DNA of 64,000 nt from Lentisphaerota bacterium. GTDB lineage: Bacteria; Verrucomicrobiota; Kiritimatiellia; UBA8416; VGWI01. The notes under the pieces are model-generated. The model was not told where the DNA came from. It saw nothing but the letters and a program-made list of their open reading frames with translations, and searched no databases. Positions 5,460 through 54,979 of the stretch are shown one piece after another; the stretch's first letter is position 1; every line of letters begins with the position of its first letter. A program made the position numbers and the translations under genes. The stretch is from NCBI GenBank assembly GCA_016873655.1, contig VGWI01000001.1, positions 3,343 to 67,342 on the forward strand, given 5' to 3'.

Positions 5460-6143
5460 ATGGCAACGCACGGAAAAAGGTACCGTAAGATCAGGGAACA
5501 GGCGCCCGCGGGCGTGCTTGAGCTGGCGGACGCTGTAGCGTTCGTGAAGCGGAATGCGACCGCCAAGTTTGACGAGACCGTTGAGCTCGGGCTGCGGCTG
5601 GGGCTTGACACTACGAAGTCCGACAACGTGGTCAGGGGCACGGTGTCGCTGCCGCACGGAACTGGGCGCAAGGTCAGGGTGCTTGTATTCGCTTCCGGGC
5701 CGCAGGCTGAAGAGGCGAAGAAGGCGGGTGCCGACACTGTCGGCGGCGACGAACTGATAGAGAAAGTTCGCGGCGGATGGACGGAGTTTGACGTGGCGAT
5801 TGCCACGCCTGAGGCCATGCAGGAGGTTCGGAAGCTCGGGCGTGTTCTCGGGCCGCGCGGTCTCATGCCCAACCCGAAGACCGGAACGGTGACTGACGAT
5901 GTTGCCTCCGCGGTCAGGGCCAGCAAGGCTGGGCGCGTGGAATTCAGGATGGACAAGAACGGGAACGTGAACGTTCCCTGCGGTAAGTGTTCTTTTGAGC
6001 CGGCGAGCATTGCCGAGAATGTGAACATGGTGGTGGCGGCCGTGCTGGCCGAGAAACCGGCCGGCGCAAAGGGGCAGTATATCAAGGCTGCGACGCTCAG
6101 TTCGACGATGGGGGTTGGCGTCGGGCTGGCGGTTCGCGAGTAG
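5460..6143 (+). CDS. rplA: 50S ribosomal protein L1
   Basis: L1 family similarity throughout; follows rplK. Confidence 0.95.
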   Translation: MATHGKRYRKIREQAPAGVLELADAVAFVKRNATAKFDETVELGLRLGLDTTKSDNVVRGTVSLPHGTGRKVRVLVFASGPQAEEAKKAGADTVGGDELIEKVRGGWTEFDVAIATPEAMQEVRKLGRVLGPRGLMPNPKTGTVTDDVASAVRASKAGRVEFRMDKNGNVNVPCGKCSFEPASIAENVNMVVAAVLAEKPAGAKGQYIKAATLSSTMGVGVGLAVRE

Positions 6144-6162
6144 GAGGAGGGGTCCTGCGACT

Positions 6163-6687
6163 ATGAGACCCGAACGGGAATCAATTTTTGCCGAGGTGCG
6201 CAGCCGGATTGATGGCAGCGCGTTTGCGTTTCTTGTCGACTACCACGGGTTGACCGTGGAGCAGATGACCGAGCTGCGAGGGCAGCTTAAGCATGTCGGG
6301 TCGCGCATGTTCATAGCGAAGAACACGCTGACCAGGCTGGTTATGAAGGATCTCGGGTGGATGTTGCCCGAGGCCTCGGTGTGCGGCCCTTCCGCGGTGG
6401 TGTGCGGGGCAGGCGATCCGACCGAGACGGCGAAGGTTCTTCGCGCTTACCACAAGGAGCGCCAGAAACCGACGGTGAAGCAGGGCTGGCTTGAAAAGAA
6501 GCCGGTGACGGCGGCGGACGTTGCCGCCCTTGCGGATCTGCCCGGCAGGCAGGCAATGCTCGGGATTGTGGTGGGCACGATTGCCGCGCCGATGACGCGG
6601 CTTGTCGGTGTGCTCTCGCAGAAGGCCGCGAGCGTCGTATACGTCTTGAAGGCCATTGAGGACAAGAAACGGAATCAGCAGCAGTAA
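6163..6687 (+). CDS. rplJ: 50S ribosomal protein L10
   Basis: L10 family. ATG 6163 is preceded by AGGAGGAGGGG. The upstream in-frame extension from 6115 overlaps the rplA 3' end. Confidence 0.9.
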   Translation: MRPERESIFAEVRSRIDGSAFAFLVDYHGLTVEQMTELRGQLKHVGSRMFIAKNTLTRLVMKDLGWMLPEASVCGPSAVVCGAGDPTETAKVLRAYHKERQKPTVKQGWLEKKPVTAADVAALADLPGRQAMLGIVVGTIAAPMTRLVGVLSQKAASVVYVLKAIEDKKRNQQQ

Positions 6688-6705
6688 GGAACAGGAGAGG
6701 TAGCA

Positions 6706-7125
6706 ATGTCTGAGGAAAAAGGAACTGTGGTCGAAGGTGGGGCGGCTGTCGAAGGCAAGATGGCCGAGTTCATCAGCTGGATCGAGGGAATCAGCGTTCT
6801 CGAGCTGTCCAAGCTCGTGAAGGCGCTTGAAGACCGTCTTGGCGTGAGCGCGGCGGCGCCTGTGGCCGTGGCGGCCGGGCCTGCGGCGGGCGGCGAGGCG
6901 AAGGTCGAGGAGAAGACCGAGTTCACGGTCGTTCTGGCCAGCGCCGGCGCACAGAAGATAGCTGTGATCAAGGAGATCCGCGCGATTACCGGACTGGGTC
7001 TGAAGGACTCGAAGGACCTGGTCGAAGGCGCGCCGAAGACCGTGAAGGAAGGCGTATCGAAGGCCGATGCCGAAGAGATGAAGAAGAAGCTCGAGGCAGC
7101 CGGCGCGACCGTCGAGATCAAGTAG
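6706..7125 (+). CDS. rplL: 50S ribosomal protein L7/L12
   Basis: Ala-rich hinge and conserved C-terminal domain ([56 protein letters not shown]). Confidence 0.95.
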
Positions 7126-32604: not shown

Positions 32605-33864
32605 ATGCCCCGCTACAAGTACGCGGCGATGGATTCGAAGGGCGGCGAGACGTCCGGCGAGATAGATGCCGAGAGTCAAGCCAAGGCGGTTGCCGCGATC
32701 CGTGCGCGCGGGCTGTTCCCCACGAAGCTGACGCCGACTGCTGCGGGGCCGCGTGCGTCCTCGGGCGCGAAGGGGCTCAAGACAGAGATCCGTCTGCCGC
32801 GTTTTCTGCGCGGCCGAGTTCGAACCAAGCAGCTCATGGTCTTGACCCGCCAGCTGGCGACGCTGGTAGACGCGGGACTGCCGTTGCTGCGAGGGCTCAG
32901 AATCCTGCTCAGGCAGGAGCGTAATCCGACGCTTCGCGAAGCCTTGAGCCAGATCGGCGAGGCCGTTGAGAGTGGAAGCAATTTTTCCGAGGCCCTTGCC
33001 CAGCACCCAAAGATATTCGACAACCTCTTCGTGAACATGGTTCGCGCTGGCGAAGCGGGCGGCGTTCAGGAAGTGGTGCTGCTGCGTCTGGCCGAATTCA
33101 TGGAGAAGGGCGAGCGGATCAAGAACCGCATACGCAGCGCCATGGTCTATCCCGTGGTGGTGCTTGTCGCGGCGGTCGGCATACTGTCATTCCTGCTGAC
33201 CTTTGTCATACCGAAGTTTCAGGAGATATTTGAAGATCTGCTCGGGGACCGCGGGCTGCCTGCCATCACGCAATTCGTGATAGATGTCAGCACCATCGTG
33301 AAAACGAAGGGGTTGTGGGTGGTTGGCGGAATCGCTTTGATCTGGGCTGGGTTCGTGGCTTTCGGGAGGACCCGCCGCGGAAGGCTGATCGTCGACGGGA
33401 TGAAGCTCAAGATTCCGCTGTTCGGCGGGCTGATGACTAAGACATCGGTCGCGAGATTTGCCCGGACCCTCGGGACACTGATGAGCTCGGGTGTGCCGGT
33501 GCTGCAGGCTTTGAACATTGTCCGGGACACGAGCGGCAATTCTGTTGTTGCCAAGGCGATCCAGGACGTCCATGACAGTGTGAAGGAAGGCGACGCCATG
33601 GCCGTGCCGCTCGAGGCGTGCGGTGTGTTTCCGGGCATGGTCGTAAGCATGGTTGATGTCGGTGAAGAGACCGGCGCTTTGCCTGACATGCTTGTGAAGA
33701 TAGCCGACACTTACGAGGACGAGGTCGACACAGCCGTGGAGGGCCTGACCTCGATCATCGAGCCGGTAATGATCGTGTTTCTTGCCGTCATCATCGGGAC
33801 GATAGTCATAGCGATGTTCGTGCCGCTGATTTCCATTATCGGCGAGCTGTCCGGCGGCGCGTGA
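32605..33864 (+). CDS. pilC: type II secretion/type IV pilus inner-membrane platform protein (GspF/PilC family)
   Basis: Two T2SSF-type repeats and 3 TM segments. Conserved GspF segments are LATLVDAGLPLLRGL and GEETGALPDML. RBS GGAAGGGAG lies before ATG 32605. Confidence 0.85.
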   Translation: MPRYKYAAMDSKGGETSGEIDAESQAKAVAAIRARGLFPTKLTPTAAGPRASSGAKGLKTEIRLPRFLRGRVRTKQLMVLTRQLATLVDAGLPLLRGLRILLRQERNPTLREALSQIGEAVESGSNFSEALAQHPKIFDNLFVNMVRAGEAGGVQEVVLLRLAEFMEKGERIKNRIRSAMVYPVVVLVAAVGILSFLLTFVIPKFQEIFEDLLGDRGLPAITQFVIDVSTIVKTKGLWVVGGIALIWAGFVAFGRTRRGRLIVDGMKLKIPLFGGLMTKTSVARFARTLGTLMSSGVPVLQALNIVRDTSGNSVVAKAIQDVHDSVKEGDAMAVPLEACGVFPGMVVSMVDVGEETGALPDMLVKIADTYEDEVDTAVEGLTSIIEPVMIVFLAVIIGTIVIAMFVPLISIIGELSGGA

Positions 33865-34020
33865 TTCGGCCACGCCGCGGTTTCGACAGTCGCATACTCC
33901 AGCATGCCTCCATGTGCACGGCGGTGCACTGTCGGCGCTGTCCGACGATCACGGTTGTCTGGGTGAGTGCCTTCAACCAACTTAACCGCAACGTCTTGTG
34001 TGTTAGTAGGTCTATGGCGC

Positions 34021-34350
34021 ATGCCGTGCTTGGGCCGGTATGGCGAGGTCCAGGAAGAGATGGTCGAGGAGGCCGATGGGGCCGTCACCTCCGGCGCTGT
34101 CGCGACGAACAAGCTCCAGGATCCGTCGGCAACCAATGCTGCTGCCGTGGAATACGATGTTCCCGAGTACGCATATCGTCTGCAGGGCAAGGTGGAGAGG
34201 AAAGAGGGGGCGAAGGTTGGCGGTTCCGCGCCGGGCGGCCCGCAGGAAACGGAACGCAGCGGCGGAGTTGATGTCGGCCGCACCAGACAGACCTGTGGGG
34301 AGATGCCGCTGCCCCCACCTCCGGTTCCTGGCAGGTGCGCAGGTGTTTGA
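34021..34350 (+). CDS. possible small acidic protein, unknown function (weak call)
   Basis: It is the only frame in the 33.9-34.5 kb gap with high GC3 and protein-like composition (EEMVEEADGAVTSGAVATNKLQDP...). There is no convincing RBS; the start is uncertain (34021 or 34060). Confidence 0.2.
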   Translation: MPCLGRYGEVQEEMVEEADGAVTSGAVATNKLQDPSATNAAAVEYDVPEYAYRLQGKVERKEGAKVGGSAPGGPQETERSGGVDVGRTRQTCGEMPLPPPPVPGRCAGV

Positions 34351-34563
34351 GATGGTCATTGCCTCGGTTCCGGCTGTTCGATCTCGCGTTGTGGCGGCAC
34401 CGACGCGTGCGGTGCGACAAGGATTTCCGGTCCGACTGACTCACCATACTTCGATGCCCCCTTTGCTTCGGTAACATCAATTGTGGCGCAATGCGCCTCC
34501 GAAAAAGAGTTTTGATTCCCCCTGCCATTCCGTATAGTGTGCCGACACACTGGGAGGTGGTGC

Positions 34564-35229
34564 ATGACGCGTACAGCTCCTTTTCGCGTGTTTCGGACGG
34601 TGTTGTTTTCGGCCGTGCTTGTGGTTCCCGTGTCGGTGTTCGGGCAGGTTTCGCGAAGCGGGTCCCGCTATGTGGCAGCCTCGTCAGGTGCTGTCGCGGC
34701 CGAAGGCGAGGTCGTCAGGATCCGCAAGTTGCGCGGGTTGAGTGCCCAGGACAAGATCCGCACTCCCAACTATCAGACCGATCTTACGGGCCCGACCAAG
34801 CCCGCCAAGGAGTGGGTGAACATATCGGTCAGCTACGACACTTACCCCGAGATAATCGAAGAGCTCACCTTCCGGTTCTATGTCCTTGCGGGTAAGCGGG
34901 TCGCTGGTTCCCCGGCGCCGGCTTACACTTTCTACCAGGCCAATGTCACTTATCTCGACATTGAGGCTGGACGCGGACATGAGGGCAGCGTTCTCCTGCG
35001 GCCCCCGGCCCTGAAGCTTCACGGTGACCTCATTGCGTTGGCCGTGGAAGTGTATCACAAGGGTGAGGTGGTCGGCCAAGAGAGCGACGGGCCTCGTGAC
35101 TTTGCGGCTGACTGGTGGAAGAAGGTTGACCAGCCCGGCGTCACGGCCAGAGCCGGGTATCTTCTGCCCCGTTCTCAGACACCGTTTGCCTTCGTCAACC
35201 CGGATGACTACGAGTATGCCAGGCCATAG
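34564..35229 (+). CDS. secreted hypothetical protein (Sec signal peptide), unknown function
   Basis: RBS GGGAGGTGG precedes ATG 34564. N-terminal signal peptide MTRTAPFRVFRTVLFSAVLVVPVSVFGQ; no recognisable domain. It is not a class III (prepilin) signal. Confidence 0.6.
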   Translation: MTRTAPFRVFRTVLFSAVLVVPVSVFGQVSRSGSRYVAASSGAVAAEGEVVRIRKLRGLSAQDKIRTPNYQTDLTGPTKPAKEWVNISVSYDTYPEIIEELTFRFYVLAGKRVAGSPAPAYTFYQANVTYLDIEAGRGHEGSVLLRPPALKLHGDLIALAVEVYHKGEVVGQESDGPRDFAADWWKKVDQPGVTARAGYLLPRSQTPFAFVNPDDYEYARP

Positions 35230-35265: not shown

Positions 35266-36924
35266 ATGTTGAGATCCAGACGAATACTTGCTCTTGATAT
35301 CGGGTCCAGCAAGGTGGTGCTGGCCGAGTTTGCCTTGCTCAAGTCGGGCGAGATTCATCTCACGGACTGTGGGATCGGGAGCCTCGGCTTCGAGCCTGAC
35401 ACGGAAGGCGACGTTTCGGCGTACATCGTTTCGGCCATACGCGACGTGATGCGCGCGCGCGGGATGAGACCGGGGCACCTCATGATGACCGTATCCGGTC
35501 ATGCGGTCTTTCCACGTTTTGTGAAGCTTCCGCCAGTGGCGCGCGACAAGGTTCAGCAGATAGTCCGCTACGAGGCCGAGCAGAACGTGCCCTTCCCGAT
35601 AGAGGAAGTCGTCTGGGACCATCAGCTTGTCGGCGACTCGCAGGGCGAGATGAACGTGATTCTTGTGGCGGCGAAGACGGAGAGCATCAAGTCGCTCACG
35701 GACTGTGTTCTTGCCGTTGACATGGAGCCGGAGGTCGTTGACGTCGCACCGATGGCGCTCTACAACGCCGTCAGGTACAACTGCCCGGAAATGACCGGCT
35801 GCACGATGGTGTTGGATATCGGCGCCAGGACCTCGAATCTCATTTTCATAGAATCTTCCCGCATATTCAGCCGCAGTATTCCAGTGGCGGGCAATACGAT
35901 TACGCAGGAGATAGCCAAGGAGCTGGATGTTCCTTTCGCGGAAGCGGAGCGGCTGAAGATCGAGCACGCCGTGGTTGGGCTTGGCGGGGTGTACGCCGGC
36001 CCGGACAACGACACAGCCGATCTTATCTCGAAGATCACGCGCAACGTCGTGACGCGTCTGCATGCCGAGGTGAACCGTTCGATAAACTTCTATCGGGGGC
36101 AGCAGTCAGGGAGTTCTCCCAACAGAGTGCTTCTCACGGGCGGCTCTTCCGTCATACCTCATATGGACACGTTCTTCCGCGAGAAGCTCAAGGTTGACGT
36201 GGAGCACTTCAACCCGCTTGCTCGGGTTCCGGTTGGCGGCAGGCTGGTGCAGCAGGAGGTGGCTCGGGACGCTCATTTGCTGGCGCAGGTTGTTGGGCTT
36301 GGGCTGCGAAAGGCTCTCAAGTGTCCTGTTGAGATCAACCTTATGCCTCCCGACCTCGTCGCGCGCAAACAGATGAGGAAGAGACAGCCTTTCTTTGTTC
36401 TGTCCGCGTTGGGCGCAGCGCTGATTCTGTTGTGCTGGTGGGCGTATACGCGGCAGATGACGGCGGTCTTCAGGACAAGGATCGAGAACATTGAGACGCG
36501 CATAAGCGGAATGGCGAGCGTTGCCGGTCAGCTCGGGCGGATCCAGTCTGAGAAGGCCGTTGTTGACAAGCAGATGGGCTTCTTGCTGTGGCTGGTTGAA
36601 TCACGGGGCAGATGGTTGCAGGTTCTATCGGCGCTGGACGCCTGCCTTCTTGACGGGATGTGGCTTACGTCGGTGAAGCCGGTTGATTCAGGGGACGGGG
36701 CTGTCCGGCGGGTCAAGGTGACAGGGGTGGGTTTTGCGGACAAGTTGAAGGCCGCGGAGCGGGCGGACGCCACTGCGGTTGAGGTGCTGGTGGAGCGCCT
36801 GAAGAAATCGCCGGAGTTCGGGCCGGGTGTCGAGATAAAGCCGGTGCCGTTGCCGGCCATGGGGGCTTCCTCGCGCGATTTCGAGGTAGTCGTGGATCTG
36901 GTTGTGCCGATAGTGGTTCAGTGA
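35266..36924 (+). CDS. type IV pilus assembly PilM-PilN fusion protein
   Basis: N-terminal ~350 aa show the actin-like PilM/FtsA fold pattern (ILALDIGSSKVVLAEF...VLDIGARTSNLIF). They are followed in-frame by a PilN-like segment: INLMPPDL motif, a single TM helix FFVLSALGAALILLCWWAY and a periplasmic domain. Confidence 0.75.
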   Translation: MLRSRRILALDIGSSKVVLAEFALLKSGEIHLTDCGIGSLGFEPDTEGDVSAYIVSAIRDVMRARGMRPGHLMMTVSGHAVFPRFVKLPPVARDKVQQIVRYEAEQNVPFPIEEVVWDHQLVGDSQGEMNVILVAAKTESIKSLTDCVLAVDMEPEVVDVAPMALYNAVRYNCPEMTGCTMVLDIGARTSNLIFIESSRIFSRSIPVAGNTITQEIAKELDVPFAEAERLKIEHAVVGLGGVYAGPDNDTADLISKITRNVVTRLHAEVNRSINFYRGQQSGSSPNRVLLTGGSSVIPHMDTFFREKLKVDVEHFNPLARVPVGGRLVQQEVARDAHLLAQVVGLGLRKALKCPVEINLMPPDLVARKQMRKRQPFFVLSALGAALILLCWWAYTRQMTAVFRTRIENIETRISGMASVAGQLGRIQSEKAVVDKQMGFLLWLVESRGRWLQVLSALDACLLDGMWLTSVKPVDSGDGAVRRVKVTGVGFADKLKAAERADATAVEVLVERLKKSPEFGPGVEIKPVPLPAMGASSRDFEVVVDLVVPIVVQ

Positions 36925-36925
36925 C

Positions 36926-37897
36926 GTGAAGACGCGCAAAGCCATAGTCGTGGGGCTGGTATTCGCCGTGGTGGCGGGGATGCTGATAGGCGCAGCGGTT
37001 CTCCTTGTTCGCGGCACCGGGGAACTGGCCAGGGCGCAGACCGCGCTGGATTCGAAGCGCCGGGAATATGACAGTTACTACGGCAGAAAGCCTTTCCCTT
37101 CGGCTGATAACGTTTCCGTCGAGAAACGGAACCTTGCCGACGAGAAGGGATGGTTGAAGAACATACTGGCGGCTGCGGCGGAGGGAACGCCGGAAGTCCA
37201 GGAGAACACGCCGTCCACGTTCGTGCGGCAGTTGGTGGAAATCAAGGCTCAGTTGAAGGATGCGGCGGCCAGGAGTCGCGTGGCTCTGCAGCCGAGTCCG
37301 GACGCGTTCTCCTTCTCCTTCCAGAGATACTTCGAGGGAAGCGTGTTGCCGGATAAGGATCACGTTGCCATGATGAGTCAGCAACTGGCCATCGTGGAGG
37401 GCTTGTGCCGGCTTCTCTTCAGATGCGGCGTATTGAGCATAGACGCGGTGGCAAGAGACGAGTTCGAATCCGTAAGGGCGACGGTGCAGGGCCCGGGCGA
37501 GGACAGGCCGGGAATACGAGCGCTTGCAGGCGCTTCTCAACGTGACGGCGCTCTTGTCAACAGGATGGGGCCGGTAAGCGACCATCAGTTGTATGCAAGA
37601 ATGTACTTCGGGCTGCGGTTCAAGTCGACCGAGGATACTCTCTGGCGTGTCCTGAACGAGCTTGCCGCGCATGAAGTGTTCTGCGTGGTCAATTCCGTAT
37701 CCGTCGAAAAAGATGGACAGGATATCCGATCTCCGCGCGGTCTGGCAGGCCTGGCCGCGACGGATGCTGACGTGCCGGCTGCCACTGTCGCGCTGCGCGA
37801 GATGTCAAGGCAGGAGAGGCAGGTTACAGGGAAAGAGATCGAGACCCCAGTGGTGGTGACGCTGCACATCAGCGCCTATCTGTTCAAGGTTCCTTGA
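36926..37897 (+). CDS. N-terminally membrane-anchored coiled-coil protein in the PilO position; resembles the Amuc_1100 family
   Basis: GTG start 2 nt after the pilMN stop. One TM helix (IVVGLVFAVVAGMLIGAAVLL), then a coiled coil and an alpha/beta region. The C-terminal pattern PVVVTLHISAYLFKVP and internal segments match my recollection of Akkermansia Amuc_1100; this is unverified. Confidence 0.5.
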   Translation: MKTRKAIVVGLVFAVVAGMLIGAAVLLVRGTGELARAQTALDSKRREYDSYYGRKPFPSADNVSVEKRNLADEKGWLKNILAAAAEGTPEVQENTPSTFVRQLVEIKAQLKDAAARSRVALQPSPDAFSFSFQRYFEGSVLPDKDHVAMMSQQLAIVEGLCRLLFRCGVLSIDAVARDEFESVRATVQGPGEDRPGIRALAGASQRDGALVNRMGPVSDHQLYARMYFGLRFKSTEDTLWRVLNELAAHEVFCVVNSVSVEKDGQDIRSPRGLAGLAATDADVPAATVALREMSRQERQVTGKEIETPVVVTLHISAYLFKVP

Positions 37898-37919: not shown

Positions 37920-38945
37920 GTGATTGCCGTTATCAGGAAGAACTACGACAAGGTGATGGCAGCCGTTGTCACGGTAATGCTTCTCGCCTCGCTGGCGTAC
38001 CTGGCGGCACGGGTTTCGAGCATACGCGAGATGGAGAAGGACTTCGACCAGACGATCAGCATGGTTCGGCCAAAGCATCCTGTAGCCCACTCGCTGGATG
38101 CGACGCCGTACGAATCGGCGATGGCGCTTGTCAGGACCCCGTTCGCCATCAACCCGTCTGACTACACGAATTTCTGGATGTTTGTGCCGGCCAGACGCTG
38201 CATATGCGTCGTCTGCCGCCGTCCGATACCGATCGAGTCAAAGGAGTGCACGTTCTGCTTGGAGCCGCAGCCAGAGCCGAAGGAGACGATGGAGGACTAT
38301 GACGGCGACATGGATGGGATGTGGGACGTATGGGAGAGAGAGCACGGGCTCAATCCTTTCGACCCGTCGGATGCGGAAAAGGACAATGACGGGGACAAAT
38401 TCTCGAATGCAGCGGAATTCAGAGGGAAGACGGATCCGAATGAGGCGTTGAGCTACCCGCCGCTGGAGGCCGAACTGTTTTTCGAGAAGGTAAATGTTGA
38501 CCCGTTCAGGCTTCTTTTCAAGAGCCGTATCACGCTGCCTGGCGGCGAGTTCAAGTTCGGCATAAATACCCGCGAGAACGCGAAGACTTACTTCGTAAAG
38601 ATCGGCGACGATGTGGAGGGGTTCAGGGTGCTGTCCCACGAGGAGAGAGTAGAGACCGTCGTCAAGGGCGGCATGCCGAGGCGAGTGGATGTTTCGGTTC
38701 TCACCCTCAAGCGAGGCGACAGGGAAATCGCCCTCGTAAAGGACCGTGATTTCTCGTACGTGGAGTATCTTGTCCACTTCGTGTTTGCTCTGGATGATCT
38801 CAGATTCCAGAAGAGACCGGAGGACGAGTTCAGTCTCAGATCGCATCGCTACAAGGTCATAGGGGTTGACATTGGCCGTAACCGTGTACTAATTAGTCGC
38901 ATGGAGGATGGGGAACGGGTTGAGGTGACGCCCGTATCCGAGTGA
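37920..38945 (+). CDS. membrane-anchored protein with C4 zinc-ribbon and DxDxDG calcium-loop motifs (PilP position)
   Basis: RBS AAAGGGAGCGGGG precedes GTG 37920. TM helix near the N-terminus. C-x2-C-x15-C-x2-C (CICVVCRRPIPIESKECTFC). Acidic segment DPSDAEKDNDGDKFSNAAEFRGKTDPNE. C-terminal beta-rich domain. Confidence 0.45.
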   Translation: MIAVIRKNYDKVMAAVVTVMLLASLAYLAARVSSIREMEKDFDQTISMVRPKHPVAHSLDATPYESAMALVRTPFAINPSDYTNFWMFVPARRCICVVCRRPIPIESKECTFCLEPQPEPKETMEDYDGDMDGMWDVWEREHGLNPFDPSDAEKDNDGDKFSNAAEFRGKTDPNEALSYPPLEAELFFEKVNVDPFRLLFKSRITLPGGEFKFGINTRENAKTYFVKIGDDVEGFRVLSHEERVETVVKGGMPRRVDVSVLTLKRGDREIALVKDRDFSYVEYLVHFVFALDDLRFQKRPEDEFSLRSHRYKVIGVDIGRNRVLISRMEDGERVEVTPVSE

Positions 38946-39041
38946 GGTTGAGCGATCGGCCGGGCCGGGGATGTAGCTCGTGGCTGGTCTCTCTCAGTGT
39001 CCTTTTCGTTGCTTGGAACAACCACAAGGAGTGAACTTCCG

Positions 39042-42000
39042 ATGACTCGGATTGGCAAGGGTTGGCTGCTTGCGGCGGCTGTGGCTATTATGCTTTCGGC
39101 CGTTGGTGCGTTTCGCGCCCAGGACATTGACGAGAACGCCGCCAAGGTCGCGGAAGAGGTTCTGATAGAAGAGATCGTCAACGGGGATCTCGTGGAGTCT
39201 TCTGTCAGAAGAGAGATGGCGTCTCCTTCTCCAGTTGCAGATGCGGATTCTCTGATAGTTGCGGCCACTTCTTCTCCCTCCCCGGCGCCCGCGAAGGCAG
39301 AAGATTCCGTCGAGTTTCTCGCTGAGGCGGCGTTGGGTTCCGCGCCTGTCCTACCAATGGAGGATGAGCCTGTTGTGCTGCCGGAGCCGTTGGCCCCGGT
39401 CGCTCCAATTCGTTCCGGGGCGGTCGTTGTTGCCTCGCAGATGAGTGAAGAGGAGGCGACCGGTCTGGCAGCGGAGGTGGATGCCGAGGAACTGCTGGCC
39501 AAAGTTGACACTCAATCAGTTGTTTCCGCGGGTAGCGGATTGCCGGCGCCGGCGGCAGAGGAGATCGTTCCGGTTCTGGCTCTCGATGATGTCGAGCCGG
39601 TTGCTCCGGTTGAGGAAGAGGTCACTGAACTGGTTGTCGACGAGCCCATCGAAGAGCCTTTTGTCTCCATGGTTCCTTCCGAAGAAGTCCAGGAAGCCCT
39701 TGTTGAAGAACCGTTGGTTCTGATCGAGCCGGTGGTTGGACCGACAGAGCCGGTTATGACCGCCGTGTCCGCCGGGCAGGGGGAAGGTCGGCCGGTTGTT
39801 GAGAAGGTGGATCCAGTTCACGAGGATCTCGATGCTGACCTGCTTGCGATCATGGGGGCTGAAGCAGCCGTAAAGCCCGCGAAGAAAGTCCCGCCCACAG
39901 AATCGGCGGCACCGACAGCGGGCGACGGTAACGGCGTTAGAGTTGGGGTCGTTGAAGACCAGGAAGTGCTGCGTCGCCGGGCTTTGGCCGCCCACGCGCG
40001 TGAACTCCTGAAGCAGGCCGACGATGACCTGGCCAACGGGCGCTACGAGATCGGGATTGTCCGGTACCGCAACGCCATAAGGGGACTTTCGCTGCCGGCC
40101 GACGTGAAGATCAGGAAGCAGGCAGAGCGCGGTCTGGCCGAGTGCTACTACCGTAACTCCCTTTACCTTGAAAAGCAGAACGATCTGAACGCGTCGCTTG
40201 TGGCGGCGAAATCGTCCATGGATGCCGGTCATCCGAAGGGCGAGGCGCAGTTCGTGAAGATCAAGAAGCTGATTGATGAACCGCCTCCGCCGAAACTGGC
40301 GCCGCCGACCGAACGCTGGAATCAGCAGGAGTACAGGGACAAGCAGGCAAAGATCGCCGACCTCATGAAGCGGGGTCGCGAGTATTCGATGGCCGGTGAA
40401 TTTGACAATGCCGCCCAGGACTTCAGGGGCGTGCTTGCGCTTGACCCCCAGAACACGGAAGCCATGCGATTGCTCAAGAAGGTCGAGCAGGTAATGTATG
40501 ACAGGGCTTCGATGGAAGCCGAAGCCACCCGCCAAAGCATGATGCGGGAAGTGCGCGAGGGGTGGAACCCGCGTGACTACAAGTACGCCCAGGAGTCGGC
40601 TGCGGTCATGAAGCCTGGCGATGTGACAAGGCAGCCGCGCGGCGAGACTGTCCGTACGAGGATAATGAAGAAACTGGAGCAGATCACCATCCCAGAGATC
40701 GATTTCAGGCTGGCGAACATCAACGACGTTCTGGAAGTCCTCCAGGATTCGAGCCGGGAGTTTGACAAGAGTGAGACCGATGAGGGCAAGAAGGGCGTCA
40801 ATATCATCCTGAATCTCAGGTCGGGCGCCACAGGAGGGGCAGCAGCTCCATCGCTGGCGCCGATCGGTGACCTGTTTTCTACGACGGCCCCCGCTTCAAC
40901 CGCGAGAGGCTCGGCGGTCCCGGGCAGCGAGGCGGTTCCGCTCATTACCTTCAATGCGCGTTACATCTCTCTGCTCGAGGCGCTCAAGATAGTCACGAAC
41001 GTCGCGAACCTGAAATGGCGCATTGAGGGCAGCGTGGTTATGATCGTTCCCCTGAACGCCCCTGACGGCGAGGTCATCGTTCGCATGTACGATGTTCTCC
41101 CGTCCGTTGAGGAGAAGATTCCCCAGATGCGTGCCGCGCTTGGCGGCGGAGCCGGCGGCAGCGGGTTCCGTTCGATGGAAGCCGCGGGGATGAACATCGA
41201 AGGTGCCGACTGGAAAGAGTTCTTCCAGGAGATGGGTGTTAAGTGGCCGGACGGATCCTCAATCAAGTACGTTCGGGCGATAGGCAAGGTGGTTGTCGCT
41301 AATACAGAAGATAACCTTATGCGGTTCGAGCAGGTTCTGTCGGTGCTCAACGTTGTGCCCAACCAGATTGAGATTGAGGCGCGTTTCGTGGAGGTCAGCC
41401 GTGCCGACGTGTCCGCGCTCGGGTTCGAATGGCTGCTGACTGACAACTGGGAGATGGCGAGCCATCCTGATGATGCGGCGCTCCCGCCGGCCTCCCGTCG
41501 CCGCCTGGTGATGAACGAATCGAACATGACGAAGGGCAACCGTTTTCTCAGCAAGGAGAGCGTCGCCACCGCCGTGGCGGATGACATAATGACCATATCG
41601 TCCGTACTGACCAACCCGGAACTGTCTTTCGTGCTTCATGCCTTGGAACAGCGCGGGTTTGCCGACCTTCTGTCGGCGCCGAAGGTGACTACTCAGGCTG
41701 GTCAGGAGGCAACGATCAAGGTAGTGACGGAGTACATCTATCCGACGGATTTTGAGGTGACTCCGGTTACCGGCACGGCGACGGCCACAGGCGCAACCAC
41801 GATACGCGGTGGCGTTGTGGAGCCTTCGGGGTTTGAGACTCGCGAGGTCGGCGTCATACTGACTGTGCTCCCGGACGTAAGCCCGGAGGGGCGTATGATC
41901 AATCTGACGATGACGCCTGAGGTCGTAAGTGAGCCGGAGTGGAAAGACTATGGATCCATATTCACGGACGATCAGGGCAACGAGACAAGGTTGAGGATGG

Positions 42001-42356
42001 AGCAGCCTTTCTTTTATACGCGGTCAATCGCGACGTCCATATCCATATACAACGGAGCGACCGTTGTGATGGGTGGTATGATGAATGAGGTGCGGCGCGA
42101 TACCGATGACAAAGTGCCGTTCCTCGGCGATATCCCGATAGTCGGGAAGCTGTTCCGCAGTAAGAGCGAGCGGAGCGACAAGCGCAATCTTCTGATCTTC
42201 GTGACGGCCAAACTAGTCACTCCCGACGGTCGGCCGGTCGAGAAGAGCGGGGAAAGCCTTGCCGGGCGGATAGCCGAAGCCGGTCTGGTGCCGGATCTCG
42301 GCAAGTCGTCGGAAACGTCCGCTGCGCCGGGCATGGGCGGCCTGACGTTCCCGTGA
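39042..42356 (+). CDS. pilQ: secretin (PilQ/GspD family) with long acidic low-complexity N-terminal region and TPR-like repeats
   Basis: C-terminal secretin core (VPFLGDIPIVGKLFRSKSERSDKRNLLIFVTAKLV) preceded by secretin-N-like repeats. Residues ~40-300 are E/P/V/A-rich low complexity. TPR-like helices run ~310-500. RBS AAGGAG precedes ATG 39042. Confidence 0.85.
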   Translation: MTRIGKGWLLAAAVAIMLSAVGAFRAQDIDENAAKVAEEVLIEEIVNGDLVESSVRREMASPSPVADADSLIVAATSSPSPAPAKAEDSVEFLAEAALGSAPVLPMEDEPVVLPEPLAPVAPIRSGAVVVASQMSEEEATGLAAEVDAEELLAKVDTQSVVSAGSGLPAPAAEEIVPVLALDDVEPVAPVEEEVTELVVDEPIEEPFVSMVPSEEVQEALVEEPLVLIEPVVGPTEPVMTAVSAGQGEGRPVVEKVDPVHEDLDADLLAIMGAEAAVKPAKKVPPTESAAPTAGDGNGVRVGVVEDQEVLRRRALAAHARELLKQADDDLANGRYEIGIVRYRNAIRGLSLPADVKIRKQAERGLAECYYRNSLYLEKQNDLNASLVAAKSSMDAGHPKGEAQFVKIKKLIDEPPPPKLAPPTERWNQQEYRDKQAKIADLMKRGREYSMAGEFDNAAQDFRGVLALDPQNTEAMRLLKKVEQVMYDRASMEAEATRQSMMREVREGWNPRDYKYAQESAAVMKPGDVTRQPRGETVRTRIMKKLEQITIPEIDFRLANINDVLEVLQDSSREFDKSETDEGKKGVNIILNLRSGATGGAAAPSLAPIGDLFSTTAPASTARGSAVPGSEAVPLITFNARYISLLEALKIVTNVANLKWRIEGSVVMIVPLNAPDGEVIVRMYDVLPSVEEKIPQMRAALGGGAGGSGFRSMEAAGMNIEGADWKEFFQEMGVKWPDGSSIKYVRAIGKVVVANTEDNLMRFEQVLSVLNVVPNQIEIEARFVEVSRADVSALGFEWLLTDNWEMASHPDDAALPPASRRRLVMNESNMTKGNRFLSKESVATAVADDIMTISSVLTNPELSFVLHALEQRGFADLLSAPKVTTQAGQEATIKVVTEYIYPTDFEVTPVTGTATATGATTIRGGVVEPSGFETREVGVILTVLPDVSPEGRMINLTMTPEVVSEPEWKDYGSIFTDDQGNETRLRMEQPFFYTRSIATSISIYNGATVVMGGMMNEVRRDTDDKVPFLGDIPIVGKLFRSKSERSDKRNLLIFVTAKLVTPDGRPVEKSGESLAGRIAEAGLVPDLGKSSETSAAPGMGGLTFP

Positions 42357-42390: not shown

Positions 42391-43269
42391 ATGCAGAGAC
42401 TGCTTCTCGTTGACGGTCACAATGTACTCTACAGGGCTTTCTTCGCCTTCCCGCCTCTCACCACGCGTGCTGGCGTGCACACAAACGCCGTCTTCGGCTT
42501 CGTGAAGATGCTGCGCCAGCTGCTGGACGTGAGGGGCCCGACACATCTCCTTGTTGTGCTGGACGGCGGGGTGCCCGCGGAACGGTCGGGCATGATCGCC
42601 GGGTACAAGGCGAATCGGAAGCCGATGCCAGATGACCTCAGGCCGCAGGTCGGGCTTCTGGAGAAGTATATGGAGGCTTCGGGAACCGCCTGGCTCCGTG
42701 TGCCTGGCGAGGAAGCAGACGACGTGATGGCGTCAGCGGCGGTTCAATGGCATGGAATGTTCCAGGACATCATCCTGGCGTCGTCGGACAAGGATCTTCT
42801 CCAGGTTGTTTGTGACGGGATTTCTGTGGTCCCCGTGACCGGGAAGGCGAACGTGAGCACGGGGCCTTGCGAGGTGAGGGAGAAGACGGGAGTGGTGCCA
42901 GGTCAGATTGTTGACTGGCTCGCGATGGCGGGCGACGCAGCGGATAACGTTCGCGGCATAGACGGAGTCGGGCCGAAGAAGGCGGCGAAGCTGCTGAGCG
43001 AATTCGGCACCGTGGACGGGGTCTATGGCCATATCGAGGAGTTGAAGCCTGGGGTTACAAGAGATGCGATAGTCGCGGCGCGCGACAGAGTCTATGCAAA
43101 CAGGGAAGCCATGCGATTGAGAACGGGCATTTGCCTTGGCCTGGATCCGGCGGACGCTGAAATCAAGCCGCCGGACAGGCGCAGGCTTGTGCCGCTTCTC
43201 GAAGAGCTGGAATTCAATTCGATGGCGGCGGAACTGCGTCAATGCGGGCTCTTCCCGGGCTTTGGCTGA
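42391..43269 (+). CDS. standalone 5'-3' exonuclease (DNA polymerase I N-terminal nuclease domain / FEN-like)
   Basis: LLLVDGHNVLYRAFFA..., metal-binding acidic clusters and H3TH. The ORF stops at 292 aa with no polymerase domain downstream. Confidence 0.8.
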   Translation: MQRLLLVDGHNVLYRAFFAFPPLTTRAGVHTNAVFGFVKMLRQLLDVRGPTHLLVVLDGGVPAERSGMIAGYKANRKPMPDDLRPQVGLLEKYMEASGTAWLRVPGEEADDVMASAAVQWHGMFQDIILASSDKDLLQVVCDGISVVPVTGKANVSTGPCEVREKTGVVPGQIVDWLAMAGDAADNVRGIDGVGPKKAAKLLSEFGTVDGVYGHIEELKPGVTRDAIVAARDRVYANREAMRLRTGICLGLDPADAEIKPPDRRRLVPLLEELEFNSMAAELRQCGLFPGFG

Positions 43270-43451: not shown

Positions 43452-44048
43452 ATGCTCCGATTAGCCGTCACTGGAGGGATTGCCTGCGGGAAGAGTCTTG
43501 CGGGTTCGATCCTGAATGAGCTGGGGATGCGTGTAGCCGAAGCCGACGACATGGCGCATGACCTGTTGCGGCGAGGCACTGAGACGCACCGGCTGGTTGT
43601 GGAATCGTTTGGTCGGAGCGTGCTGTGGGCTGACGGCGAGGTCGACAGGGCGGCTCTGGGTCGCATGGTCTTTGCCGACCGCAGGCGGCTTTTCAGGCTG
43701 AACGCCATTGTGCATCCCGAAGTAAAGCGGGTCTGGCGCGAATGGCTCTGCAGCGAGGAACAATCCGGCACCGGCGAGGCTGTCGTGGTCGTTCCGTTGC
43801 TCTACGAGGTAGGGGAGGGATCCGGTTGGGACGCGGTGATAGCCGTCACGAGTTCCCGGTCGGTACAGATTGAGAGGATGCTCGGCAGGGGCCTGACTGC
43901 GGTCGAAGCGGAAGCGCGTCTGGGTGCCCAGATGGCGAATCCGGAGAAAGAAGCCCTGGCTGACTACGTGATAAGAAACGACGGTTCCATGGGTCTGCTT
44001 GAGCGGCAGGCTCGCATGGTGGTGGATAGTATTCGGAGAAGAAAGTGA
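43452..44048 (+). CDS. coaE: dephospho-CoA kinase
   Basis: P-loop [12 protein letters not shown] and CoaE family length. Confidence 0.85.
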
Positions 44049-45514
44049 ACATGCCGGACAGAAATCATGGCGGACAGCGGCGGCCGCACCGGGGGCGCCC
44101 CGGCAGGCCGAGACCACACGGTAACCACATGCGCGAGCAGCGCCAATGGGAGAATCCCATGGATGACAGCAGACCCAGAGACGAAGAAGTATTGCCGCCC
44201 CGCGCTGACCAGCCTGAGGGAGATCAGCCTGTGCCGCAGGATGAAACGCGGAAGGGCGGTCCGGCGCTCAGTCTGTACGACCTTCAGGAAAAGACAGTTC
44301 CGGAACTGAATGAAATCGCGGACAGTTTTGGGCTCAAGGATCTCGGAGCGCTTCGTAAGCACGAGCTGATCTTCGAGATACTCAAGGCCAGCGCCCGCGT
44401 TACCGGCGCGATGGTCAGCAAGGGTATCCTCGAGATACTGCCTGACGGGTTTGGTTTTCTAAGGTCCGCCTACAACAACTACCTGCCGTGTCCGGAGGAT
44501 ATCTACGTCTCTCCTTCCCAGATCCGCCGTTTTGCGCTTCGAACCGGCGACCTGGTTGAAGGCGAGATACGCGAGCCGCGCGAGAAGGAGCGGTTTTTCG
44601 CCCTGCTGCGCGTGGACAAGGTGAACGGTGAGAATCCCGACCGGTCGAGGCACAAGGTGCCGTTCGAGAACCTGACCCCATTGTTCCCGAACCGCAGAAT
44701 AGGGCTTGAGAGGGAACCTGACGAGATATCCATGCGCGTTATGGACATCTTCACGCCGATCGGGTTTGGACAGCGCGGCCTGATTGTTGCCGCCCCGCGC
44801 ACAGGAAAGACCGTCCTGCTGCAGAAGATAGCGAACAGCATATCGGCGAACCATCCGGAAGCGCACCTGATAATCCTGCTGATAGATGAGCGCCCGGAGG
44901 AAGTGACCGACATGATGCGCAGCACGAAGGCGCAGGTGTTGAGTTCGACGTTCGACGAAGCCCCGGAGCGTCACGTCCAGGTTGCGGAACTGGTGATCGA
45001 GATGTCCAAACGCATGGTTGAGTGCGGAAAGGACGTTGTCATACTGCTGGACAGCATCACTCGCCTGGCCAGGGCGTACAACACTCTTCAGCCGCACAGC
45101 GGCAAGATCCTTTCCGGTGGTGTCGATGCCAACGCGCTTCACAAGCCGAAACGTTTCTTCGGTGCCGCACGGAACATCGAGAACGGCGGCAGCCTGACGA
45201 TAATAGCCACGGCTCTCGTCGAGACTGGAAGCAGGATGGACGACGTGATCTTTGAAGAGTTCAAGGGCACCGGCAACATGGAACTGTGTCTTGATCGGAC
45301 TCTTGTGGACAAGCGGGTGTTCCCGGCGATAAACATAGAGAAGAGCGGGACACGCAAGGAAGAGCTTCTGCTGCACCCGGATGAGCTGGGGCGTGTGTGG
45401 GTTCTGAGGCGCGCGGTTAACGGCGTACCCGTGGTTGAATCCATGGAGATGATAGTTAACAGGCTCAAGAAGACAAAGAGCAACGCGGAGTTCCTGTTGT
45501 CGATGAAGGAATAG
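44045..45514 (+). CDS. rho: transcription termination factor Rho with basic N-terminal extension
   Basis: RNA-binding domain, Walker A (AAPRTGKT), Q- and R-loops. The ~75-aa N-terminal segment is Arg/Pro/Gly-rich. Confidence 0.9.
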
Positions 45515-53439: not shown

Positions 53440-53650
53440 ATAGGCACCTCCGCCTGAAGCCTGCCACATGACCGCCCTTACGCCGGCAACTCCTGCCCAT
53501 CCTGTGAGAGTATAGGCGTGGCGCGGGGGATTGCGACAGGATATGAGCACCCGTGCCCATTCCGGCTGTGGAGGGGCGACGGTCCCGGCCGGTGAAACGG
53601 GCGGAAGAAACGCACTTGCGAATGGTCTGTACGGCGGTAGTATCGGGCAT

Positions 53651-54979
53651 ATGGGAAAGGAAGTAACAAGGCGCGACTTCGTGGCCATCGCCGGCGCGGC
53701 CGCTGCAGGGGTTGCCGCCGGGTGCGCTACGAATCCGACTACCGGGCGCACTCAGTTCATGCTTGTTTCCGAAGCTCAGGAAGTGGACCTCGATCGCAAG
53801 GCCGCGCCGCACCAGTTTTCTGCCGACTACGGCCCGGTGCAGGACCCCGGGCTGAATTCGTACGTAGGTGAAGTGGGCATGAAGCTTGCGGCCGTGACTC
53901 ACCGCCCGGCGATGCCGTACTCGTTCCGGGTTCTGAACTCGGTCGTTGTGAACGGCTACACGTTTCCGGCGGGCAGTGTCGGACTGAACCGCGGGCTGAT
54001 GGTCGCGATGGGCAGCGAGGCGGAGCTAGCTGCGGTGCTTGGGCACGAGCTGGGGCATGTCAACGCCAGACATGCGGCCGAGCGGATGTCCAAGAACATG
54101 GTGGCCATGGCGATGGTGACGGGCATTGCGCTCTATGTTCAAAAAGAGAACAGTGAGTATGCGGCGTTGGCGGCAGGACTGGGCGGTCTCGGTGCGAACG
54201 CGCTGCTTTGCCGGTACAGTCGGGACGACGAGCGTGAGGCCGATGCTCTTGGCATGGAGTACATGAGCAGGGCCGGGTACGGGCCGGAAGGCATGGTCTC
54301 GCTGATGGACGTGTTCAGGAACCTTCACAGGTCGAAGCCGAGCGCGGTAGACCTCCTCTTCTCGACCCATCCGATGAGCGATGAGCGCTACGAGACTGCC
54401 TGTCGGCTTGCCGCGGGCGAGTATGCCGCCGCAAGGGGGCGGGCGGACAGCAGGGATCGGTATCTTGACAGAATCGGCGGCCTGTTGAGGATACGCGGCG
54501 CGATAGAAGAGATGCAGAACGCCCAGGCCTTGTTGATGAAGAAGAAGCCGGCTGAAGCAGAAGCACGTCTCAAGAGCGCCTTGCGCCAGGCGCCCGACGA
54601 CTACGCTGGTCTGCTCATGATGGCCAAGTGCTGCATGGCGCAGAACAGGGCCGACGAAGCAGCGCGGTACGCGGACCGGGCGAAGTCCGTGTATCCATCC
54701 GAAGCGCATGCATTGCAGGTGTCCGGCTTCGCGAAGCTCAGCGGTGGTCGCTTCGACGCGGCCATGGTGGAATTCGAAGCGTACGAGACAAAGCTTCCGG
54801 GCAATGAGAACACGGCCTTTTTCCTGGGCCGCTGCCTTGAGGGGATGGGGCGCAGGCAGGAGTGTGTCGCCGAATACATCCGATACCGGAAGCAGGCGCC
54901 CGCGGGAGCGTACGCCGGCTATGTTCAGAACAGGCTTGTGGAATGGGGATACCTGAAGCCTGTTTCCAAGGGGCGGTAA
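53651..54979 (+). CDS. M48-family metallopeptidase with C-terminal TPR repeats (BepA-like), predicted TAT lipoprotein
   Basis: Twin-arginine motif TRRDFVAIAG followed by lipobox AAGC. HExxH in LGHELGHVNARH. C-terminal TPR-like helices. Confidence 0.8.
   Translation: MGKEVTRRDFVAIAGAAAAGVAAGCATNPTTGRTQFMLVSEAQEVDLDRKAAPHQFSADYGPVQDPGLNSYVGEVGMKLAAVTHRPAMPYSFRVLNSVVVNGYTFPAGSVGLNRGLMVAMGSEAELAAVLGHELGHVNARHAAERMSKNMVAMAMVTGIALYVQKENSEYAALAAGLGGLGANALLCRYSRDDEREADALGMEYMSRAGYGPEGMVSLMDVFRNLHRSKPSAVDLLFSTHPMSDERYETACRLAAGEYAAARGRADSRDRYLDRIGGLLRIRGAIEEMQNAQALLMKKKPAEAEARLKSALRQAPDDYAGLLMMAKCCMAQNRADEAARYADRAKSVYPSEAHALQVSGFAKLSGGRFDAAMVEFEAYETKLPGNENTAFFLGRCLEGMGRRQECVAEYIRYRKQAPAGAYAGYVQNRLVEWGYLKPVSKGR

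Follow-up and report, generated by a model that had tools for sequence, protein, structure and literature searches.

The Akkermansia muciniphila gene cluster that includes the secretin gene Amuc_1098 has been described (PMC5332112). Its secretin, termed PilQ, was located in the outer membrane by immunogold labeling and is the protein present in greatest abundance in that organism's outer membrane (Ottman et al. 2016, PMC4960237). The same study assigned to Amuc_1098 an N-terminal domain of three tetratricopeptide repeats (TPRs), likened to β-barrel assembly machinery (BAM) proteins and pilotins, followed by a secretin domain, and called this arrangement ‘unique but conserved’ in Verrucomicrobia and Lentisphaera araneosa. 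Here we analyze a related secretin gene at positions 39042-42356 (+ strand) of a 64,000-nucleotide stretch from a Lentisphaerota bacterium (contig VGWI01000001.1 of assembly GCA_016873655.1), referred to below as the window. The fusion of a TPR module to a secretin and the idea that the module replaces a pilotin are already known (PMC4960237), whereas the long acidic, disordered tail that precedes the TPR module appears to be undescribed; in the literature searched, secretins of the Planctomycetes-Verrucomicrobia-Chlamydiae (PVC) group are nowhere said to have an N-terminus that is acidic or disordered. What is new here is that the signal peptide is followed at once by a conserved motif, acidic and amphipathic, which a hypervariable acidic linker connects to the TPR module, an arrangement that suggests a flexible periplasmic tether.

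The protein is strongly supported as the outer-membrane secretin of a PVC pilus-like machine and as the Lentisphaerae orthologue of Amuc_1098 ‘PilQ’. The NCBIfam model NF042912 (Amuc_1098_fam) matches it at 421.3 bits (E = 6.9e-126) in two stretches that run from aa 291 to the end. The best of these aligns aa 291-801 with profile positions 14-488, so the ~290 N-terminal residues fall outside the model. An Akkermansia homologue is 38% identical and colinear over aa 218-1071, and the succession of TPR module, N-domains and secretin core is colinear with that of Amuc_1098. Gene context agrees: NCBIfam matches to the four upstream genes place the secretin as the last gene of an Amuc_1102-1101-1100-1099-1098 cluster. 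The order PilM, Amuc_1100, Amuc_1099, secretin is kept in ~60 loci with complete upstream sequence, drawn from Kiritimatiellia, Victivallales, Lentisphaerales and Verrucomicrobiota and including two Akkermansia genomes. Sec export of the protein is equally well supported, as is the assignment of its C-terminal ~330 residues to the usual multimeric secretin channel. The gene is an ordinary member of a known and widespread family.

Comparison with PVC homologues, which the original prediction had named as the way in which its premise of an unusual secretin might fail, found that the extension is the norm in the Amuc_1098 family (n = 168) and that PilQ of this clade commonly carries it. A search with the full-length secretin returned 8 matches and was swamped by low-complexity words; it was repeated without the tail. 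An exhaustive phmmer search with aa 291-1104 then gave 1129 cluster representatives at E <= 1e-30, and relatives are present in at least 581 species-representative genomes, among them Kiritimatiellia, Victivallales, Lentisphaerales, Opitutia, Roseibacillus and Akkermansia. In 104 of these representatives that are full-length, the sequence ahead of the TPR module has a median length of 220 aa (maximum 633), with 150 aa or more in 68%. Its content of Asp and Glu is typically 20-40%, Lys and Arg mostly stay below 8% (10-20% in a few), and aromatic residues usually account for 0-5%. Much the same picture emerges from the ~60 syntenic loci, where the extension measures 93-532 aa with the same compositional bias. 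Pooling both sets (n = 168) gives a median of 228 aa, an interquartile range of 153-295 and a maximum of 633, with Asp and Glu typically at 15-40%, Lys and Arg mostly low (10-20% in a few) and Phe, Trp and Tyr usually at 0-5%. The pre-TPR length of 299 residues in the present secretin lies at the 77th percentile of these 168. The ~10% of representatives that lack the extension are the most distant ones, and they possess the TPR module. At the other end of the range, a rumen relative (L067, RUG13889, ~5930-7000) has a 356-aa extension with ~65% Asp and Glu, the family extreme, and another member (P0059) has an acidic tail with 62%.

The first ~270 mature residues are, on strong evidence, a polyanionic disordered region rich in Pro, Val and Ala, which is normal for the family, evolves fast and varies in length. 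Residues 31-310 consist of 16.8% Val, 15.4% Glu, 15.0% Ala and 10.7% Pro, with only 4.3% Lys plus Arg and 0.7% Phe, Trp and Tyr combined. The net charge is -46 across 273 aa. Asp and Glu together make up about 21%, short of the ~30% that had been estimated. The most negative stretch of 100 aa carries a charge of -26 with a single aromatic residue, and 62% of it is Pro, Val, Ala or Glu; among 38 open reading frames (ORFs) of the window this is the most extreme acidic segment, against -16 per 100 aa in the next protein. Quasi-repeats of EEPxV and VAPVEEEV had also been proposed, and these do not hold up as true repeats. Tandem Repeats Finder detected no tandem repeats in the DNA of the extension, and the best internal self-match of the protein scores 54, near the shuffle level of 42 +/- 6 and reached by 10 of 200 shuffles. 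Only the tripeptide pattern EP[VLI] shows a clear excess, with 7 copies where 1.2 are expected, a number reached in 0 of 500 shuffles. The apparent quasi-repeats are compositional bias, not repetition.

Within this region two parts can be told apart, a short conserved tip and a long variable linker. The protein begins with a Sec signal peptide (aa 1-27, 39042-39122, + strand), recognizable from the sequence and from a helix at residues 8-25 in an AlphaFold2 (AF2) model run with a 98-sequence family alignment. Cleavage is placed after ...FRAQ or at AFRA|Q; there is no lipobox, and neither the signal peptide nor the sequence just behind it contains a Cys. The mature N-terminus carries a conserved acidic amphipathic motif (aa 26-50, AQDIDENAAKVAEEVLIEEIVNGDL; 39117-39191, + strand), as judged from the alignment, AF2 and a motif hidden Markov model (HMM). 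Across the 98 sequences, A26 is kept in 74%, Q27 in 84%, D30 and E31 in 61% and E38 in 82%, followed by hydrophobic residues at positions 35, 40, 42 and 46, G48 (56%) and L50 (51%). AF2 predicts a helix at residues 31-46 with a predicted local distance difference test (pLDDT) score of ~70. Conservation by residue class is 0.61 in the tip motif versus 0.31 in the linker, where positions 53-255 have low occupancy. The motif HMM matches 39 of 157 extensions, always from near residue 26, and none of the shuffled sequences. Acidic-hydrophobic motifs in a broader sense occur in the first 35 mature residues of 35% of members, versus 16% of other extension windows.

The linker itself (aa 51-298, 39192-39935, + strand) is acidic, hypervariable and rich in Val, Glu, Ala and Pro. 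AF2 supplies the disorder prediction that the original prediction had called for: aa 50-298 are modeled as coil with pLDDT below 50, interrupted by one helix of six residues at 265-270. Relative to one homologue (P0003), the extension is 28% identical versus 68% in the core. A few conserved prolines (P251, P279, P284/285) stand near the end of the linker, and the TPR module follows them.

From here on, the parse by AF2, Pfam and fold comparison bears out in its essentials the architecture read from the sequence alone, namely an acidic disordered region, a TPR-like module, two N-domains and a secretin core. The module at aa 299-507 (39936-40562, + strand) is modeled as eight helices with pLDDT above 90, and a separate AF2 model of aa 298-720 reproduced it together with the first N-domain at pLDDT 95-98. 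On the single sequence the Pfam TPR models stay below threshold (TPR_16 20.3 bits, TPR_2 19.5 bits). The family profile of the module matches consensus TPR proteins (9qhb) at 1.4e-12, Foldseek aligns the model to the idealized TPR 1na0 (2.7e-4, probability 1.0), and precomputed TPR Pfam matches exist in many of the homologues; by profile and predicted fold, then, the helical module is a TPR array. Its alignment to NF042912 begins at profile position 14. The first periplasmic α/β N-domain (aa 533-700, 40638-41141, + strand) is delimited by AF2 secondary structure and pLDDT, and Foldseek alignments to secretins with N-domains cover columns 540-690. Within this domain sits a disordered insertion rich in Gly, Ala, Ser and Pro (aa 595-629, 40824-40928) that differs between family members (occupancy 0.82, with low conservation), and a second Gly-rich loop occurs at aa about 699-712. 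The second, N3-like domain (aa 724-790, 41211-41411, + strand) is predicted from AF2 and from a TIGR02515 alignment that starts at aa 733; sequence matches to solved GspD and PilQ start at aa ~745-750. Pfam Secretin_N (PF03958), PF21305 and STN were not detected in this secretin, so both N-domains are called from predicted structure. The β-barrel and gate core (aa 791-1060, 41412-42221, + strand) contains the only Pfam domain above threshold, Secretin (PF00263) at aa 867-1059, with 128.8 bits against a cutoff of 27.5. By sequence and fold, the core matches solved secretins of type IV pili, of the secretion systems of types II and III, of Tad systems and of phages, with fold matches from 1e-16 to 1e-9 and V. 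cholerae competence-pilus PilQ (6w6m, 5.7e-16) as the best.

We favor, with a probability of roughly 0.6, a joint reading in which an Amuc_1098-type outer-membrane secretin uses its acidic tail as a flexible tether that presents the tip helix. The tail would act as a periplasmic tether or entropic spacer, and the tip helix (aa ~28-50) would dock onto a putative partner, which could be the platform in the inner membrane, the cell wall, or the groove of its own or a neighboring TPR module. In a ring of 12-15 subunits the linkers may form a negatively charged brush that keeps the ring of TPR modules and N-domains soluble and spaced during transit and assembly. A polymer-scaling estimate for ~250 disordered residues gives a radius of gyration of ~5 nm and an end-to-end distance of ~12-13 nm. 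Such a linker would cover a substantial fraction of the periplasm and should be long enough to reach from the TPR ring toward the inner-membrane platform. Since linker length varies 10-fold, a tether is favored over a ruler. Periplasm spanning and cation binding, both raised in the original prediction, are plausible roles for the acidic region.

Several observations weigh against the joint reading. At 421 bits the secretin does not reach the NF042912 equivalog cutoff of 750, even though homology is clear. The exact tip motif is limited to a subclade (25% of extensions); in more distant members a DDLDxLL-type motif takes its place, or none is present. Docking of the motif to a partner is putative, and a run of acidic residues next to a signal peptide might reflect no more than a constraint of Sec export. 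Because ~10% of representatives do without the extension, it is not essential to the machine. Additionally, the window shows neither a pilin gene nor an ATPase gene, so that the machine may build a pilus or may instead secrete another product.

Among the competing explanations, one is an artefact: an unrelated low-complexity ORF might have been joined to a secretin of normal length by a frameshift, a chimeric assembly or a start called in the wrong place. In its favor, third-position GC content (GC3) drops to 0.60 in the extension-coding DNA (39132-39971), compared with 0.73-0.77 elsewhere in the gene, and long shadow ORFs run on the opposite strand; those under the extension, however, have no Pfam matches. 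First-position GC content in this DNA is 0.78 and follows from the Val, Glu, Ala, Pro, Asp and Gly codons. The frame is open throughout and has a ribosome-binding site and a signal peptide at its start, the former a Shine-Dalgarno sequence, AAGGAG (39026-39031, + strand), seen directly 10 nt 5′ of the ATG. A TPR-secretin stripped of the extension would be left without a signal peptide. The length of 1105 first given for the protein is correct for the ORF in codons and counts the stop, so that the protein has 1104 aa. It is 100% identical to the NCBI entry ‘MAG: hypothetical protein FJ224_00280 [Lentisphaerae bacterium]’. Since the identical 1104-aa ORF recurs in four samples that were each assembled separately, three of them JGI metagenomes and the fourth a Logan SRA assembly, and more than 150 homologues share the layout, an artefactual extension can be excluded for practical purposes. 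A second explanation accepts the acidic region as genuine and dispenses with the tether: it would be a polyanionic brush that buffers Ca2+ or Mg2+ at the outer membrane or keeps peptidoglycan off the channel, and the conserved N-terminal residues would reflect only the preferences of signal peptidase and Sec export. In its favor are the net charge of -46 with hardly any Lys or Arg, and the fact that the family keeps the compositional bias but not the sequence, which argues for selection on bulk properties; an Asp-rich, thrombospondin-type-3-like stretch in the adjoining Amuc_1099-like protein is a hint of calcium. Conservation nevertheless continues for ~25 residues past the cleavage site, with amphipathic periodicity and a predicted helix, which exceeds the needs of export, and some linkers are weakly acidic and rich in Pro and Ala, with ~15% Asp and Glu (for example in the Akkermansia L042 protein). 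We regard a brush without a tether as doubtful.

The remaining alternative makes the protein its own chaperone. The TPR module would be a built-in pilotin whose groove is filled by acidic-hydrophobic stretches from the tail, either the tip helix or EEV-type motifs, in cis or from a neighboring subunit, so that protomers are held assembly-competent or the ring is stapled, in place of a separate pilotin lipoprotein. Indeed, the nearest solved folds are three-TPR domains that bind acidic EEVD peptides (PP5, Cyp40, FKBP51/52/38, RPAP3, Hip and Hop), EEVD-binding TPR proteins recur in the profile search, and the tail contains EEV three times along with the conserved AEEVLIEEIV helix. Tail and TPR module occur together in ~90% of family members, and a resemblance to pilotins has been proposed for Amuc_1098 (PMC4960237). 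The absence of a lipid anchor on the secretin, the ~10% of members with a TPR module and no tail, and the weakness of the fold matches (E about 1e-3 to 1e-4, typical of any short TPR array) speak against it, and EEVD clamps depend on the carboxylate of a free C-terminus, which a tail at the N-terminus does not provide. PilF, PilW, TadD and BamD are absent among the matches listed, and the published analogy with pilotins therefore finds no specific support here; nor does the suggestion of the original prediction that the TPR block substitutes for a pilotin or PilF, the nearest solved TPRs being consensus designs and EEVD co-chaperones. We consider this alternative unlikely, and less likely still its fuller form, an ‘auto-pilotin’: bound to the groove of their own or a neighboring TPR module, the tip helix or motifs resembling EEV would chaperone the secretin on its way through the periplasm and template the ring without a pilotin lipoprotein. 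If true, it would amount to a PVC-wide mechanism of secretin assembly not described for other secretins.

The genes 5′ of the secretin, all on the + strand, encode the other recognizable parts of the machine. Immediately upstream lies an Amuc_1099-family pilus-like system protein (37920-38945), which matches NF042425 at 76.9 bits (cutoff 50) and is syntenic in ~60 loci. It has an N-terminal transmembrane helix followed by a CxxC...CxxC zinc-ribbon-like motif (CICVVCRR...CTFCLEP), and the Asp-rich stretch noted above lies at aa ~128-174, with a weak match to an MtsD model; as read from sequence, these motifs hint that the machine's periplasmic portion binds metal or calcium. The Amuc_1100-family gene (36926-37897) reaches 77.9 bits with NF038287, below the cutoff of 180, and is assigned with the help of a precomputed PF28028 match on an identical gene and of synteny; its product has no significant solved relatives by sequence. 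Next comes a PilM-like gene of the Amuc_1101 family (35266-36924; PF11104 PilM_2 135.5 bits, NF045709 497 bits). Its 552-aa product comprises a PilM domain (10-349), a transmembrane segment and a C-terminus of ~160 aa; with a weak PilN match over the C-terminal 194 aa (E = 0.055), it resembles a fusion of PilM to PilN. An Amuc_1102-related pilus-like protein (34537-35229) matches NF042424 at 39.9 bits, under the cutoff of 55. Further upstream, 32605-33864 encodes a PilC/GspF-type inner-membrane platform protein (PF00482 T2SSF 220 bits; PilC/GspF NCBIfam models ~410-420 bits). The ~670 bp between the PilC-like and Amuc_1102-like genes (33865-34536) contain no convincing ORF and no Rfam match, and small ORFs at 33861-34895 were dismissed as genes for their implausible Arg/Cys-rich translations. 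Rfam found three tRNAs and nothing else in the window.

A stand-alone 5′-3′ exonuclease gene (42391-43269) stands directly 3′ of the secretin gene and is syntenic in most loci (L002 to L076); this unexplained linkage spans Kiritimatiellia, Lentisphaerae and Verrucomicrobiota. Elsewhere in the window, Rho (44045-45514) has a strongly basic, low-complexity extension of ~76 aa, rich in Arg, Pro and Gly, before its Rho_N domain, and 53531-54979 encodes an M48 peptidase fused to TPR repeats, similar to BepA, a protease of outer-membrane protein quality control.

In Akkermansia the Amuc_1098-1102 cluster has gained medical prominence, as Amuc_1100 and more recently Amuc_1098 have been studied as host-active proteins, and its machine is still structurally uncharacterized. 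The present analysis gives a cleaner definition of that machine across at least 581 species-level genomes of Kiritimatiellia, Lentisphaerae and Verrucomicrobiota, with a secretin that nearly always bears a long polyanionic disordered tail and often a conserved tip motif. An acidic tail should not be treated as anomalous in PVC genomes, and the conserved tip motif suggests a tether function that can be tested.

The closest known counterpart is Akkermansia Amuc_1098, which has the same signal peptide, acidic-Leu motif, linker rich in Pro, Ala, Val and Glu, TPR module, N-domains and secretin core, and the same operon partners, Amuc_1099 to 1102. In an Akkermansia homologue from a metagenome-assembled genome (L042), the signal peptide is followed by QDDLGDIDALLLDLGG, ~105 residues rich in Pro, Ala, Val and Glu, and then the TPR module. 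The linker here is ~2.5 times longer (~270 versus ~105 mature residues) and more acidic, with 21% versus ~15% Asp and Glu, whereas the large insertions in the secretin core of the Akkermansia homologue are absent from this secretin. Type IVa PilQ (TIGR02515; 6w6m of V. cholerae, 6ve2 of P. aeruginosa, 4av2 of Neisseria) shares the core, the N3-like domain and a gene position at the end of a pilM-led operon. In the N-terminal position, however, this secretin has a TPR module and an acidic disordered region, its TIGR02515 score of 133.8 bits lies below the cutoff of 284, and Pfam detected no AMIN domain at E <= 0.01. Membership in the type II GspD class is likewise not indicated: TIGR02517 gives 162.4 bits against a cutoff of 351, and PF03958 and PF21305 are absent, though generic GspD matches carry them. 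The pilotins and docking proteins of type IV pilus and Tad systems that are built of TPRs (PilF, PilW, Tgl, TadD) also associate a TPR array with a secretin, and the RcpA-TadD structure 8odn is among the fold matches of the secretin. Those proteins are separate outer-membrane lipoproteins, whereas here the TPR module is covalently part of the secretin, a lipobox Cys is missing, and no pilotin appears among the fold and profile matches listed.

Outside the secretins, the extension can be likened to the proline-rich (Glu-Pro/Lys-Pro) periplasmic spacer of TonB, which, like the extension with its enriched EP[VLI], is Pro/Glu-rich and non-globular and for which spanning periplasmic distance is a plausible role. 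The extension lacks the Lys-Pro half and is hence strongly net negative, and it is much longer and hypervariable in length. It also sits on an outer-membrane channel, whereas the TonB spacer belongs to an inner-membrane energy transducer.

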